Below the pieces are notes generated by a model. The model did no database searches and was not told the DNA's origin. It saw nothing but the letters and a program-made list of their open reading frames with translations. Shown here piece by piece: positions 3,691 through 29,344 of a stretch of 29,344 nucleotides of DNA. This DNA comes from Candidatus Zixiibacteriota bacterium (GTDB lineage Bacteria; Zixibacteria; MSB-5A5; WJJR01): positions 1 to 29,344 of the forward strand of contig WJJR01000319.1 of assembly GCA_014729565.1 (NCBI GenBank), given 5' to 3'. The translations under genes and the position numbers were made by a program. Position 1 is the stretch's first letter; each line of letters starts with the position of its first letter.

Positions 3691-5391
3691 CTAGTGATCG
3701 GTGACCGCCTGAAGTCCAGCCGCCAATGATGTTACCTGTTCGATCGACGCTCCCTTCAAGACATACGCGGCCTGATACGATCGCGCGCCCCGCTGGCACA
3801 CCAGGACAATCGGACGGTCACGCCCGACCTCGTCCAGACGGGATCGCAGTTGACCGAGAGGAATGCGAATCACCGGAGTGCCGTTGGCGGTCCAACAACC
3901 TGGCAGTGGTGTTGCCTCAGCCTCCTCATCCTCCCGGACATCTACAATCAATACCGCATTGGTCGAGATTGTGTCAAAAAGTCCGCCGGGACGGACAAAC
4001 TGTTGGCCGCGCCGAACAGCATGCGCCAGTCCTGCGAGGTGGTGCAACGGGTCCAGCGCCTCGGCATACGGCGGCGCGTACGCGTGCTCGAAATCGAATA
4101 AACTGTCGACGGTCGCCCGATACTGGAGAAATGCCGCGAATGTATCCAACCGCCGGATGATATCGCCCTCCCCAACCGCCTGCAAACCAAGCAACTGCAT
4201 GGTGGTGCCGTCGAAAATCATCTTCAGCACCATGGTCTTCACTTCGGGCTGGTAATCCGGTTTGTCGGGGAACGATCCGTGAACCGATTGCACATCGAAA
4301 CCGGCATCCCTCGCCGCTGTCTCCGTCAGTCCAACCGCGCCGACATTCAGGTCAAAGACACGCAAACACCGCGTCCCGAGAACACCGGGGAATTGGACCT
4401 TGCCACCGGCGAGGTTCTCGGCAATCACACGGCCGTGACGGTTGGCAATCGACCCCATGTATAACATCAGCGGCTTTCCGGTCAGTTGATGAACCGACTC
4501 GACACAGTCGCCACCGGCATAAATGTCGGGATCACTCGTCTGCATCTGCGCATTGACAACAATCCCGCCACACGCACCAATCGCCAGCCCACACCGTTCC
4601 GCCAATTCTGCCTGCGGTCGAACACCGAGCGCCAGGAACACGTAATCGGCGGTCACTGTGGCGCCTCCATCGATGTTCGCCTGCAACTGATCTTCAGCAT
4701 TGAGTTCGATACCCGTGACCGTTGCACGAAGATGTAGCTCAACATCCTGCTTGCGCAGTTCCTGTTCGACCAACGCCGACATCTCGGGATCCAGAGTCCC
4801 TTTCAGCAACTGTGCTTCACACTCGATCAGCACCGTTTCGATGCCCCACAACGACCCGACCGCCTCGGCCAACTCACAACCGATAAACCCTCCGCCAACG
4901 ATAATGGCACGATCGATGGCTCCGGATTCCGCCAGTTTGCGGAAGGCCATCGCGTCCTCAGGGCTATGAAACGTCCGAATGCGTTCGGAGGCCACGACCG
5001 GAAAGGGTGGATCGACAGGATGCGCACCGGTCGCCAATACCAGCTTGCCGTATTGATGCTCGAAGGTCTCACCGCGTTCGACTCGGCGCAACGTCAGCGT
5101 ATGGGCATTCCGGTCGACGTCGATCACTTCGACACCGGTGACGGCGTCACATCCGCGCGATGACCGGAAGAACTCGGTATCACGCGGGACACCATATCCG
5201 GTTTGCGTCAGCTCACTGAAGCTCTGAACGTCACCGGCGGCGAAGAACGGCATTCCACAGGACGCAAACGACAGATGCGCTCCCTTTTGAAACAGGGTCA
5301 CACGGGCATCGGGCAATCGGCGTTTAACCGTCGCCGCGGTCTTGGGCCCTGCCGCGACACCGCCGACAATCACAACATCAGAATATGGCAT
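3691..5391 (-). CDS. FAD-dependent CoA-disulfide/persulfide reductase with C-terminal rhodanese domain (CoADR-RHD / Npsr-like)
   Basis: Motifs VIVGGVAAG, redox Cys SFASCGMP, IVGGGFIG and IYAGGD, plus YAPPY in the dimerisation domain and rhodanese LVCQRGARS. The start was placed at the ATG giving MPYSDVVIVGG; the ORF extends to 5418. Confidence 0.85.
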   Translation of the reverse strand: MPYSDVVIVGGVAAGPKTAATVKRRLPDARVTLFQKGAHLSFASCGMPFFAAGDVQSFSELTQTGYGVPRDTEFFRSSRGCDAVTGVEVIDVDRNAHTLTLRRVERGETFEHQYGKLVLATGAHPVDPPFPVVASERIRTFHSPEDAMAFRKLAESGAIDRAIIVGGGFIGCELAEAVGSLWGIETVLIECEAQLLKGTLDPEMSALVEQELRKQDVELHLRATVTGIELNAEDQLQANIDGGATVTADYVFLALGVRPQAELAERCGLAIGACGGIVVNAQMQTSDPDIYAGGDCVESVHQLTGKPLMLYMGSIANRHGRVIAENLAGGKVQFPGVLGTRCLRVFDLNVGAVGLTETAARDAGFDVQSVHGSFPDKPDYQPEVKTMVLKMIFDGTTMQLLGLQAVGEGDIIRRLDTFAAFLQYRATVDSLFDFEHAYAPPYAEALDPLHHLAGLAHAVRRGQQFVRPGGLFDTISTNAVLIVDVREDEEAEATPLPGCWTANGTPVIRIPLGQLRSRLDEVGRDRPIVLVCQRGARSYQAAYVLKGASIEQVTSLAAGLQAVTDH

Positions 5392-5461
5392 GATGACACA
5401 CCCGGGCATGCCCGGCACGCCGCCAAAAGACAGCGCGCCGAGCTGTGGGAAATCCGTGCTG

Positions 5462-7437: not shown

Positions 7438-7818
7438 TTACAACTCCTCCGGGATGATGTGACATTCCCAACAGTACGGCTCCACGCCCATATAGAGATG
7501 GCACCGGTCGCAGAACTTTTCTTTGCTGACGTGGCATCCCAGACAGGTATTGGTGAGGCTGCATTCACGGCGCCCGCCGTCGGGCGTCTCTTCGAATCGC
7601 TGCCCGTCCCGGATCACCTGGTCGCGCCACTCGTCGAGGAGATCCATGTGATGCGCCGCCATGTACGCTGAATCACGCACGCACGATTCCGCATCTTTGG
7701 GATACTCCACTTCCGGCGTGTATGACGCGCGGCCGCTGGACAGGTTGTACCAGAACGGTGCGCTCACCAGCGCGAGAAAGATCACCAGCCCAATGGTTAC
7801 CTTGCCGGCATCATGCAT
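7438..7818 (-). CDS. dsrJ: DsrJ, triheme cytochrome c
   Basis: N-terminal TM anchor, three CxxCH motifs (CLGCH, CDRCH, CWECH) and the YMAAHHM segment. GGAGGAGG RBS; overlaps the dsrK stop. Confidence 0.92.
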   Translation of the reverse strand: MHDAGKVTIGLVIFLALVSAPFWYNLSSGRASYTPEVEYPKDAESCVRDSAYMAAHHMDLLDEWRDQVIRDGQRFEETPDGGRRECSLTNTCLGCHVSKEKFCDRCHLYMGVEPYCWECHIIPEEL

Positions 7819-9469
7819 TGGCCGCCACCTCCTCCTGAGATCCGCCTGCCGGAGACTCATCCGCATGCGTTTTGCCCGACAGGTCCTGGCCGCGAAGGTC
7901 AACGTCGCGTTCCTTTTCACCCTTCATGATCAGCGCGTTACCGACCATTTCGTGAATGCCGCCGACTTCCACTTCCGGCACCCAGTACTCCATCAACGGC
8001 GACAGGGTCGCCTTATCGATGGCGCAGATGCACAACAGCAGATTGACATCATGTTCGTCGTGCACAAACTGCACGGCATTCGCACGCGGCATACCACCGC
8101 GCATGCGCATCTCCATGTTCTCGTCGGTGCCTAACCCGGCCCCACTGCCGCAGCAGAAGGTCTGCTCCCGGATCGTGTTCTCCGGCATTTCAAAGAAGTT
8201 GTTGCAGACAGACTTTATAATGTAACGCGGCTCTTCGAGCAGGCCCATCGCCCGCGCCGGATTGCAGGAATCGTGGAACGTCGTCCGCCAGTGATCGTTG
8301 CGGCTCGGGTCCAGGTTCAATTTGTTGTTGCGGATCAAGTCCGCAGTGAACTCGGTGATGTGGACCATCTTCGTCGACGACGCATGGTCGAACGTGGTAC
8401 CGGTAATCGGCGACCGCGGTGTCTCGAGGAAGTCAGCGGGACCGTTCAACGTGTTCATGTACTGATGGATGACACGCCACATGTGACCGCATTCCCCGCC
8501 CAGAATCCACTTCACGCCGAGCCGCTTCGCTTCGGCATACATCTTGGCATTGAGCCGTTTGATCATCTCGGTCGAGTGGAAGAGGCCGAAGTTGCCACCC
8601 TCCGACGCGTATGAACTCCACGTGTAATCGAGCCCGATCTCGTGGAAGAGCGCCAGATATCCGAGCAACGTGAAGTAGTGCGGCGACGCGAAATAATCGG
8701 CCGATGGCGCAATAAACAGAATCTCCGCACCCTTCTTGTTGATCGGCGCGTCGACGCGAATCCCGGTGATCTCTTCCAGTTCATCGACGGCGAATTCGAT
8801 GCTGTCCTTGAATCCGTGCGGCTGGATCCCAAGATGGTTTCCGGTCCGGAAACAGTTCGACAGCGGTGTGCAAATCCACTCGATGCTGAGGCCGACGAGA
8901 TTCATCAACTCGCGCGCCATCATCGTGATTTCCGCCGTGTCGATCCCGTACGGACAGAAGACCGAACAACGACGGCATTCCGTGCACTGGTAGAAGTAGT
9001 AAAACCACTCCTTCAGCACACCGACCGTCAGCTTGCGGCCACCGGCGATGCTCCCCAGAATCTTGCCTGCCGTGGTGAAATCGTTGCGATACACCGACCG
9101 CAGCAGTTCGGCGCGCAGCACTGGCATATTCTTCGGGTCGCCGGAACCGATGAAGTAGTGGCACTTGTCGGCACAGGCGCCGCACCGGACACAACAGTCC
9201 ATGAACACCTGGAACGAACGGTATTTCTTGAGACGCTCACGCATGCCGGTGAGAATGATCTGTTCCCACCCATCCGGCAGTTGCCAGTCATCGTCGGTCG
9301 GCTGCCACTTGCGCGGGTAGGGCAAATCCAGATATTCCAGTGTCTCCGGGACCGCCGCGTAGTTCCACGTACCCTTACGGAACTCAACAGTGGGATCCAT
9401 CCAGCCCTGGGGTGCGGGTTTGAACTCTACCTGCGCGAGTTCTTGCGGTTTTTTCAGCTTCTCAGACAT
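7811..9469 (-). CDS. dsrK: DsrK, HdrD-like Fe-S subunit
   Basis: Motifs CVRCGACADKC, CTECRRCSVFC, GGECGHMWR and FHDSC...CCGSGAG...CAID (DsrK-type CCG domain). Confidence 0.95.
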   Translation of the reverse strand: MSEKLKKPQELAQVEFKPAPQGWMDPTVEFRKGTWNYAAVPETLEYLDLPYPRKWQPTDDDWQLPDGWEQIILTGMRERLKKYRSFQVFMDCCVRCGACADKCHYFIGSGDPKNMPVLRAELLRSVYRNDFTTAGKILGSIAGGRKLTVGVLKEWFYYFYQCTECRRCSVFCPYGIDTAEITMMARELMNLVGLSIEWICTPLSNCFRTGNHLGIQPHGFKDSIEFAVDELEEITGIRVDAPINKKGAEILFIAPSADYFASPHYFTLLGYLALFHEIGLDYTWSSYASEGGNFGLFHSTEMIKRLNAKMYAEAKRLGVKWILGGECGHMWRVIHQYMNTLNGPADFLETPRSPITGTTFDHASSTKMVHITEFTADLIRNNKLNLDPSRNDHWRTTFHDSCNPARAMGLLEEPRYIIKSVCNNFFEMPENTIREQTFCCGSGAGLGTDENMEMRMRGGMPRANAVQFVHDEHDVNLLLCICAIDKATLSPLMEYWVPEVEVGGIHEMVGNALIMKGEKERDVDLRGQDLSGKTHADESPAGGSQEEVAANA

Positions 9470-11123: not shown

Positions 11124-11441
11124 TTACACGCAGCCGGTCGGCTTGGCCAGGCCCGCAACTTTACAGGCGCCCTTCGCCGGTCCCGACGGGAACAGCTCGT
11201 ACACCTTCTTCAGCGGGAAACCGGTCTCTTTGCAGAGCTTCCGAATCATCGGCGCAATGCCAAACTTCAGATAGTATTCTCTCAGGTAGTTGACCAGTTT
11301 CCAGTGCTCCTCGGTCAATTCCTGGACGCCTTCGGTCGTGGCCAGAGCCTTGGCGACCTCTTCGTTCCATTCCGAGGGTTCGTCCATGAAGCCGTCTTCG
11401 TCGACTTCGATCTTGATGGTGCCGTGTTCGAATGTTGGCAT
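11124..11441 (-). CDS. dsrC: DsrC sulfur carrier protein
   Basis: C-terminus LFPSGPAKGACKVAGLAKPTGCV has both conserved Cys (C-x10-C), i.e. a true DsrC rather than TusE/RpsA. Confidence 0.97.
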   Translation of the reverse strand: MPTFEHGTIKIEVDEDGFMDEPSEWNEEVAKALATTEGVQELTEEHWKLVNYLREYYLKFGIAPMIRKLCKETGFPLKKVYELFPSGPAKGACKVAGLAKPTGCV

Positions 11442-14758: not shown

Positions 14759-15004
14759 TTAATCGTTGGCCGCGCCTTCGCGATGCGGGAGTTCGAGGAA
14801 GCTGCCACCGAAATAGGTGTACACACACCGTCCGGAGTTGACCAACTGCTTGATCGCTTCCTTGCACAGCTTTTTGTCCACTTCATCGCCGTACATCTCG
14901 ATCATGGCCTTGGTCAGGTCCATCGGTTTGAGCTTCTTCATTCCTTGTGCGTCTTTCACCATGGTGTACATGGCGTCCGCCACTTCGTCTACTGTCTTTG
15001 CCAC
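14759..15004 (-). CDS. dsrD: DsrD, allosteric activator of DsrAB
   Basis: 81 aa directly after dsrB with GTG start and GAGGAGGT RBS. Motifs KKLKPMDL and LVNSGRCVYTYFGGSFLEL. Confidence 0.88.
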   Translation of the reverse strand: MAKTVDEVADAMYTMVKDAQGMKKLKPMDLTKAMIEMYGDEVDKKLCKEAIKQLVNSGRCVYTYFGGSFLELPHREGAAND

Positions 15005-15014
15005 ATTAACCTCC

Positions 15015-21623: not shown

Positions 21624-21985
21624 GACTTGTCAATTTTAGCGCTTCTATGACAAGATGAAAACGATGTTCAATATCGTCGCTACTAGCGCCCATGTATTGT
21701 CAAAACCGTGACCAATTTGACCCACATTGCCAGCACATGTGCGTTACTCTCAATGGAGGTCACAACTGATCGGATGACCGAAGAACGAAAACCGGGAAGT
21801 CGAACCGTGTCGTACCGCGACACACAGAATCGAGCCACCCTATGACCACACACACACAGCGGCGGGACGGGCCGGCCTACTCCGCTGAGAGTCTGTCAAC
21901 TCCATCACCGGCCGGCTTGCATCGGTCCACAACGCCGAGTAAGTTCCCCCCGGATATGAAGACCCAAAGCACGGAGAGTGCCGTC

Positions 21986-22255
21986 GTGACCACAAATGAC
22001 GTCAATGACAAGTGTCCACACTGCGGAATGACCATGTCGAAATGGATGCCGCCGGATGACTCCGGCTGGAATCCCGTCTACCAGTACATCTGCTTCAATG
22101 ACGAATGTCCGTACTACATCCAGGGCTGGGAATGGATGCTCACGCACTATGAACAGAAAGCCTCCTACCGGCACCGTTTCGATCCACACACCGGTGATAC
22201 CGGACCGCTGGCGGTCTGGTCACCCAACGCCCACCGTGGCCGCATCATCGACTGA
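21986..22255 (+). CDS. Small 4-Cys zinc-finger-like protein (Ogr/Delta-like annotation class)
   Basis: CPHC...CFNDECPYY...GWEWM...SYR motifs. The GTG start was chosen for the GGAGAG 7 nt upstream; in-frame ATGs at 21842 and 21956 are alternatives. Confidence 0.7.
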   Translation: MTTNDVNDKCPHCGMTMSKWMPPDDSGWNPVYQYICFNDECPYYIQGWEWMLTHYEQKASYRHRFDPHTGDTGPLAVWSPNAHRGRIID

Positions 22256-22266
22256 GGGGAGGCACC

Positions 22267-23109
22267 ATGCGTGAAGTTGAAAAACTCAAAGAGGAAATCC
22301 TCAAGGACTATCCCCGGTTGTCGAAGGACGACACCTTCGCTTTCGCCTGCCACTCCGGTGTGCCCTGCTTCAACGATTGCTGCGGCGACGTGAACATCTT
22401 CCTGACGCCCTACGATGTCATCCGTCTGAAGACGGCGCTGGGCATCTCGTCGCAGGAGTTCCTCGATCGCTATACGCTCATGCCGTTCGACAAGAACCTG
22501 GGCTATCCGGTCATCCTGTTGCAAATGACCGACGATGACCGTAAGAGCTGTCCCTTTGTCAAAGAGGACGGTTGTTCCGTCTACAATGACCGCCCCTGGT
22601 CGTGCCGCATGTATCCGTTGGGCATGGCGTCGCCGGGCGAAGGCAGCGAGGATCTCTCCGACGAGTTCTATTTCCTGTTGAAAGAATCGGTTTGCAAGGG
22701 CTTCCGCGAACCGAAGGAGCAGACCGTCGACGAGTGGCTGGTCGACCAGGGGATCGTCGAATACGACGAAATGGGCAGGGACTTCAAGGATCTGACCCTC
22801 CACCCGTTTTTTCAAGAAGGCTCCAAGCTGACCCCCGAGAAGATCGAGATGTTCTTCATGGTCTGCTACAACATCGATCGCTTTCGCGACTTCGTCTTCA
22901 AGAGCAGCTTCCTCAACAAGTTCGAAGTCGATGAAGACACCGTCAATGCGATCCGAGAAGATGATGTGGCCCTGCTGAAGCTCGGGTACAAGTGGTTGCG
23001 GTTTGCGTTATTCGGCGAAAAGTCTATGACGGTCAAAGGCGATGTCCTCGCCGACAAAGAGCAGGAACTGCGGATGAAACAAAAGCTGCCGCCCAAGGCC
23101 GGCAAATAG
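22267..23109 (+). CDS. YkgJ / UPF0153 family cysteine-cluster (putative Zn or Fe-S) protein
   Basis: Motifs CHSGVPCFNDCC, LTPYD, CPFVKEDGCSVYNDRPWSCRMYPLG and CKG. RBS GAGGGAGG. Confidence 0.82.
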   Translation: MREVEKLKEEILKDYPRLSKDDTFAFACHSGVPCFNDCCGDVNIFLTPYDVIRLKTALGISSQEFLDRYTLMPFDKNLGYPVILLQMTDDDRKSCPFVKEDGCSVYNDRPWSCRMYPLGMASPGEGSEDLSDEFYFLLKESVCKGFREPKEQTVDEWLVDQGIVEYDEMGRDFKDLTLHPFFQEGSKLTPEKIEMFFMVCYNIDRFRDFVFKSSFLNKFEVDEDTVNAIREDDVALLKLGYKWLRFALFGEKSMTVKGDVLADKEQELRMKQKLPPKAGK

Positions 23110-23129
23110 CGAATACCCTGTGATACACC

Positions 23130-23169
23130 ACGGGCCGTCGAGACCAGCTCAGACTCGGCGGCCCGTTTC
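23130..23169 (+). terminator. Putative intrinsic terminator after the YkgJ gene
   Basis: 13-bp stem acgggccgtcgag / ctcggcggcccgt with one G-U and an 11-nt loop, followed by only a short T run. Confidence 0.5.
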
Positions 23170-23270
23170 GCTGAACTCACCTCTGCAAATATCCTTATCC
23201 ATTGTCAATTATCAACTTATCATCACCCCCGTTCGCTTTTTCAAATTCTTGTGCATTTTTTCTTTAGTTT

Positions 23271-23293
23271 GAAGTGTAGCTTTCGTATACTTC
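23271..23293 (+). promoter_or_regulatory. Putative -10 box (TATACT, 23286-23291) embedded in an inverted repeat upstream of the MerR gene
   Basis: GAAGTGTA-N7-TATACTTC is a 7/8 dyad in an AT-rich stretch, ending 31 nt before the start codon. Confidence 0.4.
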
Positions 23294-23324
23294 GGTAGTC
23301 ACAACGCTGTTTGGAGGTGGTCGA

Positions 23325-23846
23325 ATGGCTCACTCGAGCAGTCGCGCAAAAGAAAAATTTCACAAGATCGCCGCAACTGAACGTCGCCGGGCGACACCGG
23401 AACCCGAAGATGACTGGGATCCGATCATGGCGATTGGCGTCGCTGCATCGATGACCGGCCTCTCGGTTTCGGCGCTACGGAAGTACGAATCCGAGGGTCT
23501 GCTTACCTATCACCGCACGCCGACCGGCCGCCGCCTTCTGTGCCGCGCCGATATTCGGCGCATCAAAACGATCCAGCATCTCATCAATGAAGAGGGACTC
23601 AACATTGAGGGAATTCGGCGACTGCTGGCCTTGCTCCCCTGCTGGGATCTGACCCACTGCTCCCAGGACACCCGCCGCGAGTGCCTCGCCACCAAACACA
23701 GTCATCAGCCCTGCTGGATGGTGCGCAAAACGAAATGCGCCAAGGCGGGGTTCAACTGCAATGAATGCGATGTCTATCGCTACGGCACATACTGCATCGG
23801 AACAATGAAATCACTCGTTCACGGCACGGATGACGACACGCCGTGA
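23325..23846 (+). CDS. MerR-family HTH regulator with C-terminal 8-Cys two-CW domain
   Basis: HTH segment IGVAASMTGLSVSALRKYESEGLL...RTPTGRR...GLNIEGI. Tail CWDLTHC...C...PCW...C...CNEC...C. RBS GGAGGTGG. Confidence 0.82.
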   Translation: MAHSSSRAKEKFHKIAATERRRATPEPEDDWDPIMAIGVAASMTGLSVSALRKYESEGLLTYHRTPTGRRLLCRADIRRIKTIQHLINEEGLNIEGIRRLLALLPCWDLTHCSQDTRRECLATKHSHQPCWMVRKTKCAKAGFNCNECDVYRYGTYCIGTMKSLVHGTDDDTP

Positions 23847-23869
23847 TCGGAGGAAGAGCGAGGCGCCAG

Positions 23870-24421
23870 ATGAATGAGACGATCCGCATTGGCGACACCA
23901 CGGTCCGCTTAATCAAAGGGGACATCACCGACCAGGAGATCGAGGCCTTCGTATACTACGCCCGCCATAATCTGGCGCTCGGCTCGGGATTTGGCACGGC
24001 CATCACAGTCCGCGGCGGCCCCGACATTCAGAAGGAACTCGACACTCTTGGACCGATCGAAACCACCGAAGTCGTCGTATCCAACGCTGGTGAGCTGAAA
24101 GCGGACAAGATCATTCATGCGGTTGGGCCGCGATTCCAGGAAGTCGATCTTCCGGCCAAATTGGCAACCACCATCCGCAATTGTCTCTCCGCCGCCCGAG
24201 AGCATGACATCTCGTCTCTCGCCTTCCCGCCTATGGGCGTCGGCTTCTATGGCGTGCCCCTCGATTTGTGCGCACGGATCATGCTGGCGACATTTCAGGA
24301 AGTCTTGAGACAAAGCCCCGGTATGCGGGAGATTGTCATCTGCGCCAACGATTCCCGTGAATACGAACCGTTCCGGCAACTGCTGCAGAACTTCAGCACG
24401 ACAAAGGAGTATGTCCAATGA
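23870..24421 (+). CDS. Macro domain (Appr-1-p / ADP-ribose-binding fold) protein with atypical active-site loop
   Basis: Motifs LIKGDIT, AITVRGG, IIHAVGP and LAFPPMGVGFYG. The stop overlaps the next start (ATGA at 24418-24421). Confidence 0.85.
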   Translation: MNETIRIGDTTVRLIKGDITDQEIEAFVYYARHNLALGSGFGTAITVRGGPDIQKELDTLGPIETTEVVVSNAGELKADKIIHAVGPRFQEVDLPAKLATTIRNCLSAAREHDISSLAFPPMGVGFYGVPLDLCARIMLATFQEVLRQSPGMREIVICANDSREYEPFRQLLQNFSTTKEYVQ

Positions 24422-25116
24422 GCGAGTCACTCCATTTCGCCGAACACACCCTCCAGGAAATCGCCCTGGTCTTCATGGCGCTTGTGTACACGACACGGGT
24501 GCTGTGGCTGATCCGGTTTAATGCCTCGAAGGAACGGCAGCCGGAAACCGGCTTACCCGACACATCGGCGCGCAAAGGCATTCTCTACTCATGGTTGAAT
24601 GTGGGCATGCCGTGGTCGATGGAGAGTTCGCGAACGAAGCCGTTTATGTACGGCACCTTTGTCATCTTCCATCTTGGCGTCGCCGCTGCCATCGGACTGT
24701 CCTTCATTATACCGTATGCTCCCCAGGTCCTGGAGACGCCGCTGGTGGGTCCGGTACTGCAGATCATCATTGGCCTGGCCTGTCTGGTTGGTGTTCTGCG
24801 CATCATTCGCCGTGTCGGCGACAAACACATGCGCGCGATCAGCAGCCCCGATGACTACTTCTCGATTCTTCTGCTCACCGTCTGGTTGTTCTTCGGCACA
24901 CTGGCAGTACCCAATAGCACCGCCAATGGCGAAGGGATTCTGCTGACGTTTTTCGTCTTAACGGCGTTCTTCCTGATCTACGTCCCGTTCAGCAAGATCT
25001 CCCATTACCTCTACTATCCCTTCTCACGCTACTACGTGGGCAAGACACTGGGATACAGAGGGTCCTATCCGTTACGCCGCGGACCCGCGCCGCGACGCAC
25101 TGCCACCACCACCTGA
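24418..25116 (+). CDS. TmcC/NarI/HdrE-like membrane cytochrome b subunit
   Basis: About five hydrophobic segments with FH (H85), SSPDDYF and YVPFSKISH (H196), typical NarI-family landmarks. The MPWSMES segment resembles TmcC. Confidence 0.75.
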   Translation: MSESLHFAEHTLQEIALVFMALVYTTRVLWLIRFNASKERQPETGLPDTSARKGILYSWLNVGMPWSMESSRTKPFMYGTFVIFHLGVAAAIGLSFIIPYAPQVLETPLVGPVLQIIIGLACLVGVLRIIRRVGDKHMRAISSPDDYFSILLLTVWLFFGTLAVPNSTANGEGILLTFFVLTAFFLIYVPFSKISHYLYYPFSRYYVGKTLGYRGSYPLRRGPAPRRTATTT

Positions 25117-25135
25117 GACACTGAGGGAGATAGCG

Positions 25136-26890
25136 ATGAGTCCAGCGACCAATACAGAGCGCTCGCACAAAGCCCAGAAAGTTCTCGAACGATTCGACAA
25201 GAAGCTGAGCCGCCAGGTGGTGAGTTCGCTGGTGTCGTGTGTGCACTGCGGCATGTGCACCGATAGCTGCCACTATGTCCTGGCCAACCCCGACGATCCC
25301 AGCTACGCTCCGGCCTACAAAGCGGATCGCATTCGGCGCATCTTCAAACGCCATTTCGATTGGACCGGACGCGTCGCGCCGTGGTGGGTGCACGCCAGGA
25401 GCGTCTACACCGATGATGATCTGGAGGAACTGAAGGACATCGTCTTCGGCAAGTGCACCAACTGCCGACGCTGCACCATCAACTGCCCGATGGGTGTCGA
25501 CTTTGCCACCTTCAATCGCATGGCGCGCGGCCTGCTGGTATCAGTCGGAGTGATGCCTGAGGGCGTCTCCGTCGTCAGCAAAGACCAGTGGGAAATCGGC
25601 AATCAGATGGGGGTATTGAAAGAGGACTACATCGAGACACTGGAATGGATGGCCGAGGAACTGCAGATGGAACTGAACGATCCGGAGGCGACCATTCCGA
25701 TCGACGTCCCGGATTGCGACATTGTCTACTCCATCAATCCGCGCGAAATCAAATACGACCCACGCACCATTGCCGACGCGGCCAAAATCTTCTACGCCGC
25801 CGGCGAACACTGGACGATGCCCAGCGAAGGCTGGGACATGACCAATTTCGGCCTGTTCTCCGGTGACGACGATCTCGGCGGCGCGGTCGCGCGCCGTCTC
25901 TACGAAAAGGTCAGCGACTTGCGCGGTAAGACGCTGGTGATTTCCGAATGCGGCCACGGGTACCGCTCCACACGCTGCGAGGGTCCCAACTGGGCCAAGC
26001 AGGACATCAACGATTTCGCGATGGAAAGCTCAGTCAGTACGATGTTGCGCTACATTAGAGACGGACGCATCACCGTCGACAAGACCCGCAACACCACTCC
26101 GGTAACCTTTCATGACTCCTGCAACAACGCGCGCAGTTGCGGATTTTTCGAGGAACCCCGCGAACTACTGAACCTGGTCTGTAGCGATTTCCGTGAGATG
26201 TATCCCAACCGTGCCGAGAACTACTGTTGCACCGGCGGCGGCGGGGCGATGTCGATGTCCGAATACACACCGCGCCGTTTGAAATCGGCGAAGATTAAGG
26301 CGGAACAACTCAAAGCCACCGGCGCCAAGATCGTTGTCACCTCCTGCCACAATTGTGTTGACGGACTCAGCGACTTGATTCGCCACTACAACCTGGACAT
26401 GAAAGTGACCCAACTCGTCAATCTCGTTGCCGATGCGTTAGTGATTGAACCCAAGGCTGAAGCACCCGAGGCGGCAGTTCCTGTTGCCACGGCAGACGGC
26501 GAGCTGGCGGGATACACGATTCTTGTTGCCGACGATGAACCCGATCTCGTCACCTTCGTCTCCACGCTGCTGGAAGACCACGGCGCGACCGTCATCGGCG
26601 CATCAAATGGCGAAGAAGCGTTGTCGCTGGCCCGTGCGCACAAGCCCGATCTGATTACCCTCGACATCACCATGCCGGGCATGAGCGGCGACGAAGTCTT
26701 CGTAGCGCTGCGTAAGGATCCCGACTTAAGGGGCATCAAGGCCTGCATCATCACCGGACGGCCCGAATTGCGACGGCTCATCTATGAACGTCCGGTGACA
26801 CCGCCGGAGGGATATATCGATAAGCCGGTCGATGAAGAATCGATTCTGACCAACGTGAAGAAGATACTCGAAGTGCATCACGAGAGTTAA
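25136..26890 (+). CDS. TmcB/DsrK/HdrD-like (Fe-S)-binding protein fused to a C-terminal response-regulator receiver domain
   Basis: Motifs CVHCGMCTDSC, CTNCRRCTINC, ECGH and FHDSC...YCCTGGGG...SCHNC. After an Ala/Pro/Glu linker comes ILVADDEPD...LITLDITMPG...IITG...IDKP. Confidence 0.88.
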   Translation: MSPATNTERSHKAQKVLERFDKKLSRQVVSSLVSCVHCGMCTDSCHYVLANPDDPSYAPAYKADRIRRIFKRHFDWTGRVAPWWVHARSVYTDDDLEELKDIVFGKCTNCRRCTINCPMGVDFATFNRMARGLLVSVGVMPEGVSVVSKDQWEIGNQMGVLKEDYIETLEWMAEELQMELNDPEATIPIDVPDCDIVYSINPREIKYDPRTIADAAKIFYAAGEHWTMPSEGWDMTNFGLFSGDDDLGGAVARRLYEKVSDLRGKTLVISECGHGYRSTRCEGPNWAKQDINDFAMESSVSTMLRYIRDGRITVDKTRNTTPVTFHDSCNNARSCGFFEEPRELLNLVCSDFREMYPNRAENYCCTGGGGAMSMSEYTPRRLKSAKIKAEQLKATGAKIVVTSCHNCVDGLSDLIRHYNLDMKVTQLVNLVADALVIEPKAEAPEAAVPVATADGELAGYTILVADDEPDLVTFVSTLLEDHGATVIGASNGEEALSLARAHKPDLITLDITMPGMSGDEVFVALRKDPDLRGIKACIITGRPELRRLIYERPVTPPEGYIDKPVDEESILTNVKKILEVHHES

Positions 26891-26892
26891 CG

Positions 26893-28323
26893 ATGTGTAG
26901 CGGTGCGGCGCCCGACGGCGCATACAAGCAGTACTTCGATTCGATGCCGTGTTTCTTGACGGTGCAGGACCGTAATCTGCGCGTCATCGACGCCAATGCG
27001 CGGTTCGAAGAGAAGTTCGGCGATTACCGCGGTCGCTACTGCTACCAAGTCTACAAACAGCGGCCGGAAAAGTGTGAAGTCTGCCCGGTCGAGCGGACGT
27101 TTCGGGATGGCGAGTCACATCGCACCGAGGAACTGGTCAAGACCTTGCAGGGCGATGACGTCTGGGTGATTGTCTACACAACCCCGATTCGCAATGAGCA
27201 CGGCGACATCACCTCGGTGATGGAGATGTCGACCGATATCACCGAGATCAAACTGCTCCACAAACATTTGCGCGAAAGCCAGGAGAAGTACCGACTCCTG
27301 TTCGAAGAAGTCCCCTGTTACATCTCGATTCAGGATCGCGACCTGAACATCGTCGCGGCTAACCGCCTGCACCGCGAGGCCTTTGGCACGGCGTACGGAC
27401 AAAAGTGCTACGAGGTGTACAAACACCGGGCCAAGGCTTGCTCACCCTGTCCGGTGCACGAAACCTTCGCGGACGGTCAGTCACGGGCTCACGAAGAGGT
27501 GGTCACAGCCCAGGACGGTTCGCGCATGAACGTGTTGGTCTACACCGCACCACTGCGCAATGTCGATGGTGAGGTGGAGCACGTGATTGAAATGAGCACC
27601 GACATCACACAGATCCGCGAACTGCAAGACAAGCTCTCGTCGGTCGGCATGCTGATCAGCACCATCTCTCACGGCATCAAAGGCTTACTCAATGGACTGG
27701 ATGGGGGAATCTATCTCCTCAACTCGGGACTGGAGAAGAACGACCGCGCACGGATCGACAAGGGCTGGGACATGACACTTCGCAATGTCCGGCGCATCCG
27801 AACGCTGGTCATGGACATCCTGTACTACGCCAAGGATCGTGAACCCGAATACGAGCCGATCTCTGCGCGACAGATTCTGGAGGAGGTGTGTGGCTCACTA
27901 CAAGAACGTGCACAAAAATTGAACATCTCCTTGAGCGTCGATGCGAAGGACACCGGAGAATCCCATGCCGATCCGCAGATGATTCGCTCACTACTGGTCA
28001 ATCTGATCGAAAACGCGTTTGATGCCTGCCGGATTGACGGTGCGAAACCGGACCATACGGTGCGTGTTTCACTTGATGAGATCGATGGAGCAGTGCGTTT
28101 CACAATTGCCGACAATGGCATCGGTATGGATCAGGAAACACGTGAAAAGGCATTCAGTCTGTTCTTCTCGTCGAAGGGAGCAGGTGGAACCGGACTCGGC
28201 CTGTTTATCGCAAATAAGATTGCGCAAGCACACGGCGGCAGCATTACGCTGGAATCGGTAGAAGACGAAGGAACTACATTTGTTGTAGAACTTCCCCGCC
28301 AACAGCACCCTCCAATTGACTGA
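26893..28323 (+). CDS. Cytoplasmic PAS-PAS sensor histidine kinase
   Basis: Two PAS repeats, H-box ISH260GIKG, N-box NLIENAFDA, G1 DNGIGM, F-box FSLFFSSK and G2 GTGLGL. No TM segment and no receiver domain. Confidence 0.9.
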   Translation: MCSGAAPDGAYKQYFDSMPCFLTVQDRNLRVIDANARFEEKFGDYRGRYCYQVYKQRPEKCEVCPVERTFRDGESHRTEELVKTLQGDDVWVIVYTTPIRNEHGDITSVMEMSTDITEIKLLHKHLRESQEKYRLLFEEVPCYISIQDRDLNIVAANRLHREAFGTAYGQKCYEVYKHRAKACSPCPVHETFADGQSRAHEEVVTAQDGSRMNVLVYTAPLRNVDGEVEHVIEMSTDITQIRELQDKLSSVGMLISTISHGIKGLLNGLDGGIYLLNSGLEKNDRARIDKGWDMTLRNVRRIRTLVMDILYYAKDREPEYEPISARQILEEVCGSLQERAQKLNISLSVDAKDTGESHADPQMIRSLLVNLIENAFDACRIDGAKPDHTVRVSLDEIDGAVRFTIADNGIGMDQETREKAFSLFFSSKGAGGTGLGLFIANKIAQAHGGSITLESVEDEGTTFVVELPRQQHPPID

Positions 28324-28344
28324 CACTTTCATTCTCACACCTGT

Positions 28345-28380
28345 TCAACTGAGTCAAAATGCAAATATTGACAAAGTTGA
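28345..28380. promoter_or_regulatory. 36-bp imperfect dyad upstream of the third DsrM-type gene, containing a TTGACA
   Basis: TCAACT-ga-GTCAAAAT-gcaa-ATATTGAC-aa-AGTTGA, with TTGACA at 28368-28373. Confidence 0.45.
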
Positions 28381-28387
28381 CCAGCGG

Positions 28388-28410
28388 AAAAGCGTTCTGC
28401 GCTTTTTCTT
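28388..28410 (+). terminator. Small A/T-flanked hairpin, possible terminator
   Basis: aaaagcg-ttctg-cgctttt followed by tctt. Confidence 0.35.
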
Positions 28411-28467
28411 ATAGGCGCACGTGCCGTATTAAACGATGACAACGTTGGTCGGCTATGGGAGGACTGT

Positions 28468-29344
28468 ATGAGCGCACTGCAATGGGTTAGCTACGTGGCG
28501 ATTGTCTTCTTTGTGGTCGCGGTGGCGGTGAAAATGATCCGCATCGCCCGCATGCCGGTGCATCTGCGCTGGGATCTGTACCCGATTCCGCACGAGAAAG
28601 GTAAAGGCCACTACGGCGGCTCGTACTTCGAGGAAATCGACTGGTGGACCAAGCCGCGCGAATTCGCCCTGATGGCCGAGCTGACCGAAATGGCCAAGGA
28701 GATCATCCTGGTCAAAGGGGTCTATCGCCACAACCGTCCGCTCTGGTATTTTTCCTTCCCGTTCCACTTCGGCCTCTACTGCCTGGTCGGATTCACCGTG
28801 CTCCTTCTCATCGGCGGGATCATGCAGGCGGCCGGGATGACGGTCACCGCCGCCACCGGCAACGGCTTCGCCGTGGCGGTGCACTATGCCACCCTGGTGC
28901 TGGGTTATGTCGGCTGGATCCTGAGTCTCGTGGGCGGTGTTGGCGTTCTGCTGAAACGGATGACGAACCGCGACATGCGCGCCGCCACCGTGCGCGGCGA
29001 CTATCTGAATCTGGTGTTTCTGCTGGCCGTGTTTGTGACCGGCATGCTGACGCTGACCACGGTCGAACAATCACTGGCGACCTGGCGCGGATTTATCGGC
29101 AGCCTGATCACGTTCCAGGCGGCGGGAGCGCTGCCGACGATCATGGCGGTGCACCTCTGGCTCGTCGTGGTTTTGCTGCTCTATTTCCCGTTCACCCATA
29201 TGACCCACATGGTCAGCAAGTATTTTACCTACCACACGGTGCGTTGGGAGGATGAGCCGAACATCCGCGACGGGCGCATTGACCGTGCGGTTCAGCAAGC
29301 ATTGGGATACAAGATCAACTGGTCGGCGCCGCACATCAAGTCCG
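28468..29344 (+). CDS. dsrM: Second DsrM-type (HmeC / Gram-positive-like) NarI-family cytochrome b, 3' end outside the window and absent from the ORF track
   Basis: Manual translation from the ATG after GGGAGG gives MSALQW...PVHLRWDLYPIPHE...YGGSYFEEIDWW...PFH...YFPFTHMTHMVSKYFTYHTVRWEDEPN...WSAPHI, open to the window end. Confidence 0.8.
   Translation, partial: MSALQWVSYVAIVFFVVAVAVKMIRIARMPVHLRWDLYPIPHEKGKGHYGGSYFEEIDWWTKPREFALMAELTEMAKEIILVKGVYRHNRPLWYFSFPFHFGLYCLVGFTVLLLIGGIMQAAGMTVTAATGNGFAVAVHYATLVLGYVGWILSLVGGVGVLLKRMTNRDMRAATVRGDYLNLVFLLAVFVTGMLTLTTVEQSLATWRGFIGSLITFQAAGALPTIMAVHLWLVVVLLLYFPFTHMTHMVSKYFTYHTVRWEDEPNIRDGRIDRAVQQALGYKINWSAPHIKS

Follow-up and report, generated by a model that had tools for sequence, protein, structure and literature searches.

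A conserved HdrD-like iron-sulfur subunit fused to a receiver domain, with its own membrane anchor and histidine kinase, encoded beside the dsr genes of a Zixibacteria genome

Layout of the locus

We analyzed a stretch of 29,344 nucleotides from a Candidatus Zixiibacteriota bacterium (assembly GCA_014729565.1, contig WJJR01000319.1, positions 1-29,344, + strand; hereafter the window), in which five co-directional open reading frames (ORFs) encode a MerR-type regulator (P0001), a macrodomain protein (P0002), a NarI-type cytochrome b anchor (P0003), an HdrD-like Fe-S catalytic subunit fused to a receiver (REC) domain (P0004, HdrD-REC) and a histidine kinase (P0005; Table 1). We found that the last four of these form a conserved unit that co-occurs with dsrA. 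Its organization around a two-subunit HdrDE/DsrMK-type module with its own two-component signaling, as proposed in a preliminary description made from the sequence alone, is backed by the conserved gene sets presented below.

The ORF coordinates agree with the five genes, order and spacing of that description, i.e., gaps of 23, -4, 19 and 2 nt with the ATG start taken for the second gene, the -4 nt gap being an ATGA overlap between the macrodomain stop and the cytochrome b start. The hairpin that follows the kinase stop is the sole + strand terminator-like site within 23325-28468; the regional count is 8 against 7.9 expected, and neither promoter nor terminator scans of the region gave site numbers above chance. 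No sigma-54 promoter was found within 23100-23870, the window-wide matches likewise not exceeding chance; hence, the sigma-54 control predicted at other loci (see below) does not apply here. The five module proteins and three flanking ORFs are also free of CxxCH motifs, which argues that there is no TmcA-like cytochrome c, and the conserved core has no extra gene, in keeping with the earlier claim that tmcA and tmcD are absent.

Table 1. Features of the module and of its surroundings in the window
Feature	Position	Strand	Basis or remark
MerR_1-type helix-turn-helix (HTH) regulator with Cys-rich C-terminal module (P0001)	23325..23846	+	variable first gene; Pfam MerR_1 56 bits
Atypical macrodomain (P0002)	23870..24421	+	Pfam Macro 86 bits; alternative in-frame GTG start at 23843
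NarI-family membrane subunit (P0003)	24418..25116	+	weak HmcE, TmcC and NarI model matches
HmcF/TmcB/DsrK-like Fe-S/CCG catalytic part of P0004	25136..26455	+	cluster motifs, CCG domain
Linker and intact receiver (REC), C-terminal part of P0004	26456..26890	+	Response_reg 64 bits
Soluble histidine kinase with two Cys-bearing PAS domains (P0005)	26893..28323	+	PAS_4 twice and HATPase_c
Terminator-like hairpin 3' of the kinase stop, possible operon end	28384..28400	+	terminator scan
NarI2, second NarI/DsrM-like gene, cut by the contig end	28468..29344	+	Pfam Nitrate_red_gam 48 bits
dsrC	11127..11441	-	PF04358 129 bits; candidate substrate gene
GC-rich inverted repeat between the CxxCxxCC gene and merR	23130..23166		13-nt arms, 92% complementary

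Conservation of the four-gene core

Gene neighborhoods were compared in three sets, namely four contigs, 20 genomes of the window's phylum and 80 species-level genomes from the GTDB collection. The core of Macro, cytochrome b, HdrD-REC and kinase genes is nearly unchanged in at least 80 species-level genomes spanning more than 10 labeled phyla, and its order and orientation are kept in more than 90% of about 100 loci from many assemblies. Conservation of gene order in other genomes, one of the checks that the preliminary description had named for its proposal, is thus established for the four-gene core. Counting in the 80-locus set only those loci with enough flank for each gene, the NarI-type gene lies 5' of the fusion gene in 69 of 73 loci, the macrodomain gene lies 5' of the NarI-type gene in 66 of 70, and the Cys-PAS kinase gene is found 3' of the fusion gene in 66 of 68; in 50 of 64, the kinase gene is itself followed by a stand-alone receiver. 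Accordingly, the earlier claim of a five-gene unit holds in that the unit is conserved, but it needs to be redrawn as four genes that are usually followed by a stand-alone receiver. That no such response regulator is present is correct for the window from the kinase to its end; yet, this is a peculiarity of a contig that stops 1 kb past the kinase.

The fusion protein is 72-83% identical among carriers. Its relatives in the databases number in the thousands; each of the best 120 has the receiver and an identity of at least 75%, and clustering at 50% returned just one further full-length fused cluster (P0125, 54% identical to P0004). A divergent fused branch (L063, 58% identity, with P0125 alongside) displays no macrodomain gene in the available flank. 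The carriers are labeled as Zixibacteria, Gemmatimonadota, Acidobacteriota, Myxococcota, Thermodesulfobacteriota (Syntrophaceae UBA6112 and UBA5619), Ignavibacteriota, Planctomycetota, Calditrichota, Fibrobacterota and others. Outside the window's phylum these are the submitters' NCBI labels, many of which are possibly unreliable; nevertheless, the carrier genome sizes of 3.2-9.3 Mb argue for real diversity.

In 11 of the 80 loci, including several Gemmatimonadota- and Planctomycetota-labeled genomes, a second pair, NarI2/DsrK2, follows the module, in many cases with a MerR-Cys gene ahead of it. In the nearest relative (G275, fusion protein 81-83% identical to P0004), L044:8262-11195 encodes NarI2, then a DsrK-like protein of 537 aa that shares 28% identity with P0004, and lastly a stand-alone REC. 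We predict from this synteny that the NarI2 gene at the end of the window's contig is part of such an associated second pair; orthologs of the DsrK2 and REC of L044 were not found in the window's own 89%-complete metagenome-assembled genome.

The catalytic subunit and its fused receiver

P0004 scores 329, 310 and 236 bits with the NCBIfam models for HmcF, TmcB and DsrK, whose cut-offs are 750, 735 and 400 bits, respectively. It features two CX2CX2CX3C motifs (residues 35-45 and 107-117), the eight cysteines of which are invariant in 23 orthologs; across an alignment of 45 diverse homologs seven of the eight are still invariant, with C35 present in at least 90%. The S-E-C-G-H at residues 270-274 is likewise invariant in the orthologs, and in the 45-sequence alignment each of E271, C272, G273 and H274 occurs in at least 90% of the proteins. 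The CCG domain (Pfam CCG, 43 bits) has C329, C364, C365, C404 and C407 invariant in the 23 orthologs, with C407 again kept in at least 90% of the wider alignment. A single CCG motif combined with a T/G-ECGH cysteine is the signature of DsrK, HmcF and TmcB (PMC10861901).

The best specific model for the fused receiver is the 'DVU0259 family' receiver (68.5 bits). Its residues D466, D467, D510 and K563 are invariant in the 23 orthologs, and position 540 is either T or S. The AlphaFold2 model of P0004 has a mean predicted local distance difference test (pLDDT) score of 90, with the catalytic domain above 90 and a confident receiver, connected by a linker (approximately residues 441-455) with pLDDT near 52, which is accordingly modeled as flexible. 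Foldseek searches with the catalytic part recovered EtfD (9ojn; E 2.8e-17, 452 aligned columns, 20% identity), LutA and HdrB, and those with the receiver recovered DivK and RR468; a PDB sequence search with P0004 recovered receivers and EtfD only, with no solved DsrK or HdrD. With its scores below all three cut-offs and its position in the tree of the catalytic part (see below), P0004 falls in a subfamily of its own.

The membrane anchor

P0003 is a NarI-family protein with five transmembrane-like segments, and it scores 51 bits with the HmcE model (cut-off 275) and 48 bits with the TmcC model (cut-off 240). Di-heme anchors of the NarI/DsrM/HmcE/TmcC type are expected to have two His pairs, i.e., four ligands, of which P0003 has one pair, H85 and H196, invariant in 23 orthologs. 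The second pair is missing in the fused clade and in its unfused relative, and is present in DsrM, NarI2 and the TmcC-like paralogs. Thus, the previous label of a TmcC-like cytochrome b is apt as regards a NarI-type membrane protein and fails as regards the heme sites, just one of the two family His pairs being kept. Going by NarI numbering, we take the retained pair to be that of the heme next to the cytoplasmic subunit. Such a predicted one-heme anchor suggests that electrons are exchanged with the quinone pool in the absence of the usual two-heme wire across the membrane, along a route that would consequently be poorly energy-conserving or not energy-conserving at all.

The kinase and two-component signaling

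P0005 shows two PAS_4 domains and a HATPase_c domain (90 bits), with an invariant H260; no membrane segment was found in it. Both PAS domains display conserved cysteines: C50, C61 and C64 of the first and C142, C172, C183 and C186 of the second are invariant among the orthologs, and C20, also of the first, is kept in 17 of 23. These Cys clusters would probably bind a metal or Fe-S center; in the protein atlas the PAS region falls in generic PAS clusters only. By sequence, the kinase and the receiver have between them a phospho-accepting His, an ATP-binding domain, an acidic pocket, a phospho-accepting Asp, the Thr/Ser and the Lys, and P0005 probably phosphorylates D510 of the fused receiver. 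Since this receiver is tethered to a catalytic subunit, the kinase would target the enzyme directly and not a DNA-binding regulator. Most of the other genomes probably use it for a stand-alone receiver as well and, in many cases, for an HTH-Cys-REC transcription factor in addition.

The macrodomain

MacroD enzymes rely on the Asn of a NAAN motif and on an Asp/His of the Gly-rich loop for catalysis. Across 20 orthologs of P0002 the Macro fold is kept and these catalytic Asn and Asp/His residues are missing: in all 20, V-Y/F-Y-A-R/Q stands where NAAN would be expected, and the Gly-rich stretch reads G-S/A-G-F/Y-G-x-A-I (x = T/G/N) in place of the catalytic GVDGAI. With these residues missing and the phosphate-binding loops kept, we predict a binder rather than a hydrolase. 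The closest PDB relatives are a PARP14 macrodomain and TTHA0132, with MacroD1 also among the relatives. The macrodomain is a conserved partner of the fused clade only. We regard P0002, whose translation is coupled to that of the anchor, as a probable accessory or sensor subunit that would bind a nucleotide.

A variable regulator in the first slot

P0001 combines its MerR_1 HTH with a tail bearing nine cysteines. The preliminary label of MerR/two-CW survives as a MerR HTH with a Cys-rich tail; the two-CW part was too strong, as the corresponding model (NCBIfam NF045718) gives 12.1 bits (E = 0.2) against a cut-off of 35 and has no match in the homologous module of the HTH_17-type regulator described next. 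In most Zixibacteria, the first slot is occupied by a 255-282-aa protein with an HTH_17 domain (MerR superfamily), a Cys-rich module and a C-terminal receiver, the last matched by Response_reg in 8 of 12 cases. An invariant C-W plus six-Cys pattern is common to this module and to the P0001 tail, pointing to homologous sensor modules despite the different HTH. As an HTH-Cys-REC gene in this slot and a receiver after the kinase are usual elsewhere, the window represents a variant that lacks both receivers.

Homologs of P0001 are found 5' of Macro in only a few loci (L003, L082, L089 and L119); in several genomes the MerR-Cys gene instead lies 5' of the second NarI/DsrK-like pair downstream of the module, and in the nearest relative, G275, the regulator gene is absent from the first slot. 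Other occupants are an Rrf2 regulator (at least five loci), a sigma-54 activator (three loci: L084, L101 and L114) and, in some loci, dsrC. We therefore reject the MerR gene as the head of a conserved five-gene unit: it is absent from most loci and is one of at least five alternative occupants. As a separate observation, the N-terminus of the sigma-54 activators has a low-molecular-weight phosphatase/ArsC-like (LMWPc) domain followed by a PAS domain, an unusual sensory combination. A variable Cys-rich or Fe-S transcription factor would set expression of the module, a role that would fall to the Cys-rich MerR in the window's genome.

Association with Dsr and DsrC

The opposite strand of the window features sat, aprBA, dsrAB, a dsrD-like ORF, dsrN, dsrL, dsrC, a dsrT-like RsbRD_N gene and dsrMKJOP, i.e., the full Dsr pathway noted previously, along with a CoA-disulfide-reductase-like/rhodanese gene and siroheme synthesis genes. 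In a survey of 285 genomes of the phylum, of which 59 have the fused gene and 100 have dsrA, dsrA was found in 54 of the 59 carriers as against 46 of the 226 non-carriers; the five dsrA-negative carriers are 72-94% complete genomes. Carriers labeled as other phyla show the same trend (dsrA in 14 of the 15 tested). The module and dsrA are 7-25 kb apart on seven contigs from other genomes, and three Syntrophaceae-labeled loci (L099, L130 and L153) share the gene order dsrA, dsrB, dsrC, Macro, cytochrome b, HdrD-REC, kinase, receiver, NarI2, DsrK2, dsrM. In four others (L051, L059, L094 and L096), dsrC is directly 5' of Macro. The dsrC of the window is the sole DsrC-family (PF04358) match in its own genome, and its product shares 52% identity with the DsrC encoded ahead of the unfused sister module.

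In this clade, the nearest unfused one sampled, the catalytic subunits are 41-44% identical, 10 of 10 loci have the gene order dsrC, cytochrome b, HdrD-like without signaling genes, and the DsrC has both C-terminal cysteines. Two further relatives extend the link: the P0144 locus encodes a cysteine desulfurase, DsrC, a membrane protein and an HdrD-like protein, and P0133 (L156:2019-3668) is an HdrD-like protein with a C-terminal DsrC-family domain that starts where the linker and receiver of P0004 start, its gene being flanked by a NarI-type gene (5') and another dsrC-family gene (3'). On the strength of this domain architecture, P0133 is a predicted Rosetta-stone link between the enzyme subfamily of P0004 and DsrC. 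A tree of the catalytic part recovers the fused proteins as one well-supported clade with very short internal branches, with which the unfused clade, P0144 and P0133 group, away from DsrK, DsrK2 and the genome's own HmcF-like paralogs. Hence, the proposed connection to Dsr and DsrC is upheld by dsrA co-occurrence, dsrC adjacency and the DsrC-domain fusion in a relative.

Such unfused sets of dsrC, a gene for a NarI-type protein with one His pair and an HdrD-like gene are found in dsrAB-negative Zixibacteria (L064-L073 and L157), sometimes beside a cysteine desulfurase; DsrC is thus encoded there without DsrAB.

Other genes in the window

Several neighbors merit mention in their own right. The genes dsrB and dsrN are separated by a small dsrD-like ORF (14760-15010, - strand), so that DsrD and DsrL co-occur in the window, a combination reported as unusual (PMC6338057). 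Between dsrK and dsrO, the ORF at 7438-7920 (- strand) has three CxxCH motifs, consistent with DsrJ, and no profile match. Directly 3' of dsrP, between the Dsr and siroheme synthesis genes, the gene at 3691-5418 (- strand) encodes a CoA-disulfide-reductase-like flavoprotein with a C-terminal rhodanese-like domain and an active-site-like C-Q-R-G-A-R-S loop. Upstream of the module, 21842-23109 (+ strand) encodes an Ogr/Delta-like zinc-finger protein (137 aa) and a CxxCxxCC (PF03692) protein (280 aa), a pair found at the same position in G275 (L044) and in a Calditrichota-labeled genome (L143).

A predicted switchable route between the quinone pool and DsrC

Building on the observed gene content, motifs, conservation, dsrA co-occurrence and adjacency or fusion to DsrC, we lean modestly towards the module being an accessory, phospho-switchable DsrMK/HmcEF-like menaquinone-pool:DsrC oxidoreductase. 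Here, the one-heme anchor P0003 would connect the menaquinone pool to the cytoplasmic subunit P0004, which would use its two [4Fe-4S] motifs, the S-ECGH cysteine and a single CCG non-cubane cluster site, with DsrC, as a trisulfide or disulfide, as the most likely substrate. The soluble kinase would probably sense redox or metal state, phosphorylation of the tethered receiver would set enzyme activity or substrate access, and the macrodomain would add a nucleotide-dependent input. The substrate, the phosphotransfer and its effect, the direction of electron flow and the binding by the macrodomain are thus predictions from motifs and gene context.

Several observations weigh against this proposal. 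The 46 dsrA-positive genomes of the phylum without the module, which include the 99% complete G284 of the window's own genus, imply that it is dispensable for Dsr function, and the absence of a fused-gene ortholog from G284 further implies gain or loss within the genus. The co-occurrence counts are uncorrected for shared ancestry, and the distance from the module to dsrA exceeds 150 kb in four genomes of the phylum that are closed or on a single contig. P0004 falls below every NCBIfam equivalog cut-off; hence, its substrate could differ from that of DsrK. The DsrC-like domain fused in P0133 has no CysB equivalent, and the sister relation of the fused and unfused clades has only 86-87% support in the Shimodaira-Hasegawa approximate likelihood-ratio test (SH-aLRT). 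Finally, a predicted complex of P0004, P0003 and the macrodomain scored 0.00, which the tool treats as evidence neither way.

A rather unlikely alternative is that the module is mainly a signaling device, in which the anchor and the HdrD-like subunit read how reduced the quinone pool or a thiol/persulfide pool is, with insignificant flux, the fused receiver serves as a phosphate sink or kinase modulator and output goes through the stand-alone receiver or the HTH-Cys-REC factor. This would account for one kinase being accompanied by up to three receivers per locus, for the loss of one of two heme sites by the anchor, for the many Cys-rich putative sensors (PAS domains, regulators and macrodomain) and for the dispensability of the module in many dsrA-positive genomes. 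However, the whole catalytic set of two ferredoxin motifs, ECGH and CCG is invariant across the 23 orthologs, the 72-83% identity across distant hosts is what a strongly constrained enzyme would be expected to show and the unfused relatives retain the dsrC-cytochrome b-HdrD-like combination even where signaling genes are missing.

We also regard as unlikely an enzyme for a disulfide, persulfide or nucleotide-linked thiol other than DsrC (e.g., one containing CoA or ADP-ribose), aided by the macrodomain, with the Dsr co-occurrence reflecting shared ecology or joint transfer. The sub-threshold scores with the DsrK, HmcF and TmcB models, the restriction of the macrodomain partnership to the fused clade, the CoA-disulfide-reductase-like/rhodanese gene in the same window and the closest solved fold, EtfD, which works with an electron-transfer flavoprotein (ETF) and not with a thiol protein, would all fit this. 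Against it, all related clades sampled have an adjacent or fused dsrC, several fused loci have dsrC directly 5' of the module, and the DsrK-type ECGH cysteine is kept. Lastly, that the five genes are chance neighbors or an assembly artefact with no functional unity is extremely improbable: the inconstant MerR gene and the chance-level terminator and promoter scans would suit it, but the stop/start overlap and 2-23 nt gaps, and above all a four-gene core whose order and orientation persist in more than 90% of about 100 independent loci, already contradict it.

Returning to the menaquinone-pool:DsrC oxidoreductase, we put forward a more specific version that is speculative and, as a whole, on the improbable side. 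Phosphorylation of the receiver, which sits where the relative P0133 carries its DsrC domain, would gate the docking of DsrC at the CCG site, while the macrodomain would report either an adenine nucleotide of sulfur metabolism (e.g., adenosine 5'-phosphosulfate, AMP or a derivative of ADP-ribose) or a partner that is ADP-ribosylated. Post-translational control would thereby open, close or reverse the flow of electrons between the quinone pool and DsrC, and the module would have spread between phyla together with the dsr genes.

These considerations bear on the supply of electrons to DsrC and its regulation in newly found dsrAB lineages (Zixibacteria, Acidobacteriota, Gemmatimonadota, Myxococcota and others), which mix reductive and oxidative markers such as DsrD with DsrL. 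For these, the very strongly conserved module is a candidate for a second link of DsrC to the quinone pool, one that is subject to regulation. If this is true, two-component control would here be exerted on an electron-transfer enzyme itself, by way of a receiver fused to a respiratory Fe-S subunit, which would be a rare arrangement.

Comparison with known systems

Full-text searches of the published literature found no description of this module. The statement of the preliminary description that it knew of no description of this combination stands to that extent and has to be tempered by the precedents of the hmc operon and of the DVU0258-0260 genes beside tmc (see below).

DsrMK is like the module in architecture, in the ECGH cysteine, in the single CCG and in the genomic link to dsrC. 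No other relative has a demonstrated substrate, DsrMKJOP having been shown to be a menadiol:DsrC-trisulfide oxidoreductase (PMC10861901). The canonical DsrMK is also encoded in the window and is just 27-29% identical to the module; DsrM keeps both His pairs where P0003 keeps one, and neither a receiver nor a kinase or macrodomain accompanies DsrK. Among solved folds, that of EtfD of Mycobacterium smegmatis (9ojn), a membrane-linked Fe-S/CCG protein that works with the menaquinone pool, is closest to the catalytic part. EtfD is a single polypeptide that includes the membrane part and takes electrons from ETF; unlike P0004, it has no receiver.

In Hmc, a NarI-type protein stands beside a cytoplasmic one-CCG Fe-S protein, as in the module, and HmcF and HmcE are the best NCBIfam models for P0004 and P0003. 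The gene right after that for the Fe-S subunit, rrf1, encodes a receiver, the separate counterpart of the one that is fused in the module, and an Rrf2 regulator likewise occupies the module's first slot in the loci mentioned above. HmcF corresponds to DVU_0531 (PMC10920352), and rrf1 and rrf2 regulate hmc in Desulfovibrio (Nitratidesulfovibrio) vulgaris Hildenborough (10.1101/2023.11.02.564894, citing Rossi 1993 and Keon 1997). Unlike Hmc, the module is devoid of HmcA, B, C and D and has its own Cys-PAS kinase, macrodomain and one-His-pair anchor; HmcB- and HmcC-like genes of the same genome occur only in a separate cluster on another contig (C30).

Two clusters of the genome are of note in themselves. 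C30 (L013:395-9188) encodes a sigma-54 activator, HmcF-, HmcE/TmcC-, HmcB- and HmcC-like proteins, a kinase and two DVU0259-type receivers, and a second HmcF-like cluster (C418, L014:1878-7522) shows unannotated ORFs with sizes and order like those of C30, plus a 141-aa ORF upstream.

TmcBC presents the same two subunit types as the module, and it is to the 'DVU0259 family' that the fused receiver matches best. The tmc operon spans DVU_0263-0266, and we place the kinase/receiver genes DVU0258-0260 just upstream of it, on the basis of their locus-tag numbers. The module differs from TmcABCD in having neither the TmcA cytochrome c3 nor TmcD and in scoring far below the TmcB and TmcC cut-offs. 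Membership in Tmc or Hmc is rejected, the defining cytochrome c and other subunits being absent; given these missing subunits and the failed equivalog cut-offs, the module is best described as an HdrED/DsrMK-type system that is not a member of those complexes.

The closest known systems, then, are HmcEF-rrf1-rrf2 and TmcBC of Desulfovibrio, and the module offers a testable meaning for the old pairing of Hmc and Tmc complexes with receivers (rrf1 and DVU0259). Relative to them, the module is new in that its receiver is covalently fused, in having a Cys-PAS kinase of its own, a degenerate macrodomain and a one-heme anchor, in lacking any periplasmic cytochrome c subunit and in its very wide and very conserved distribution alongside dsr genes.

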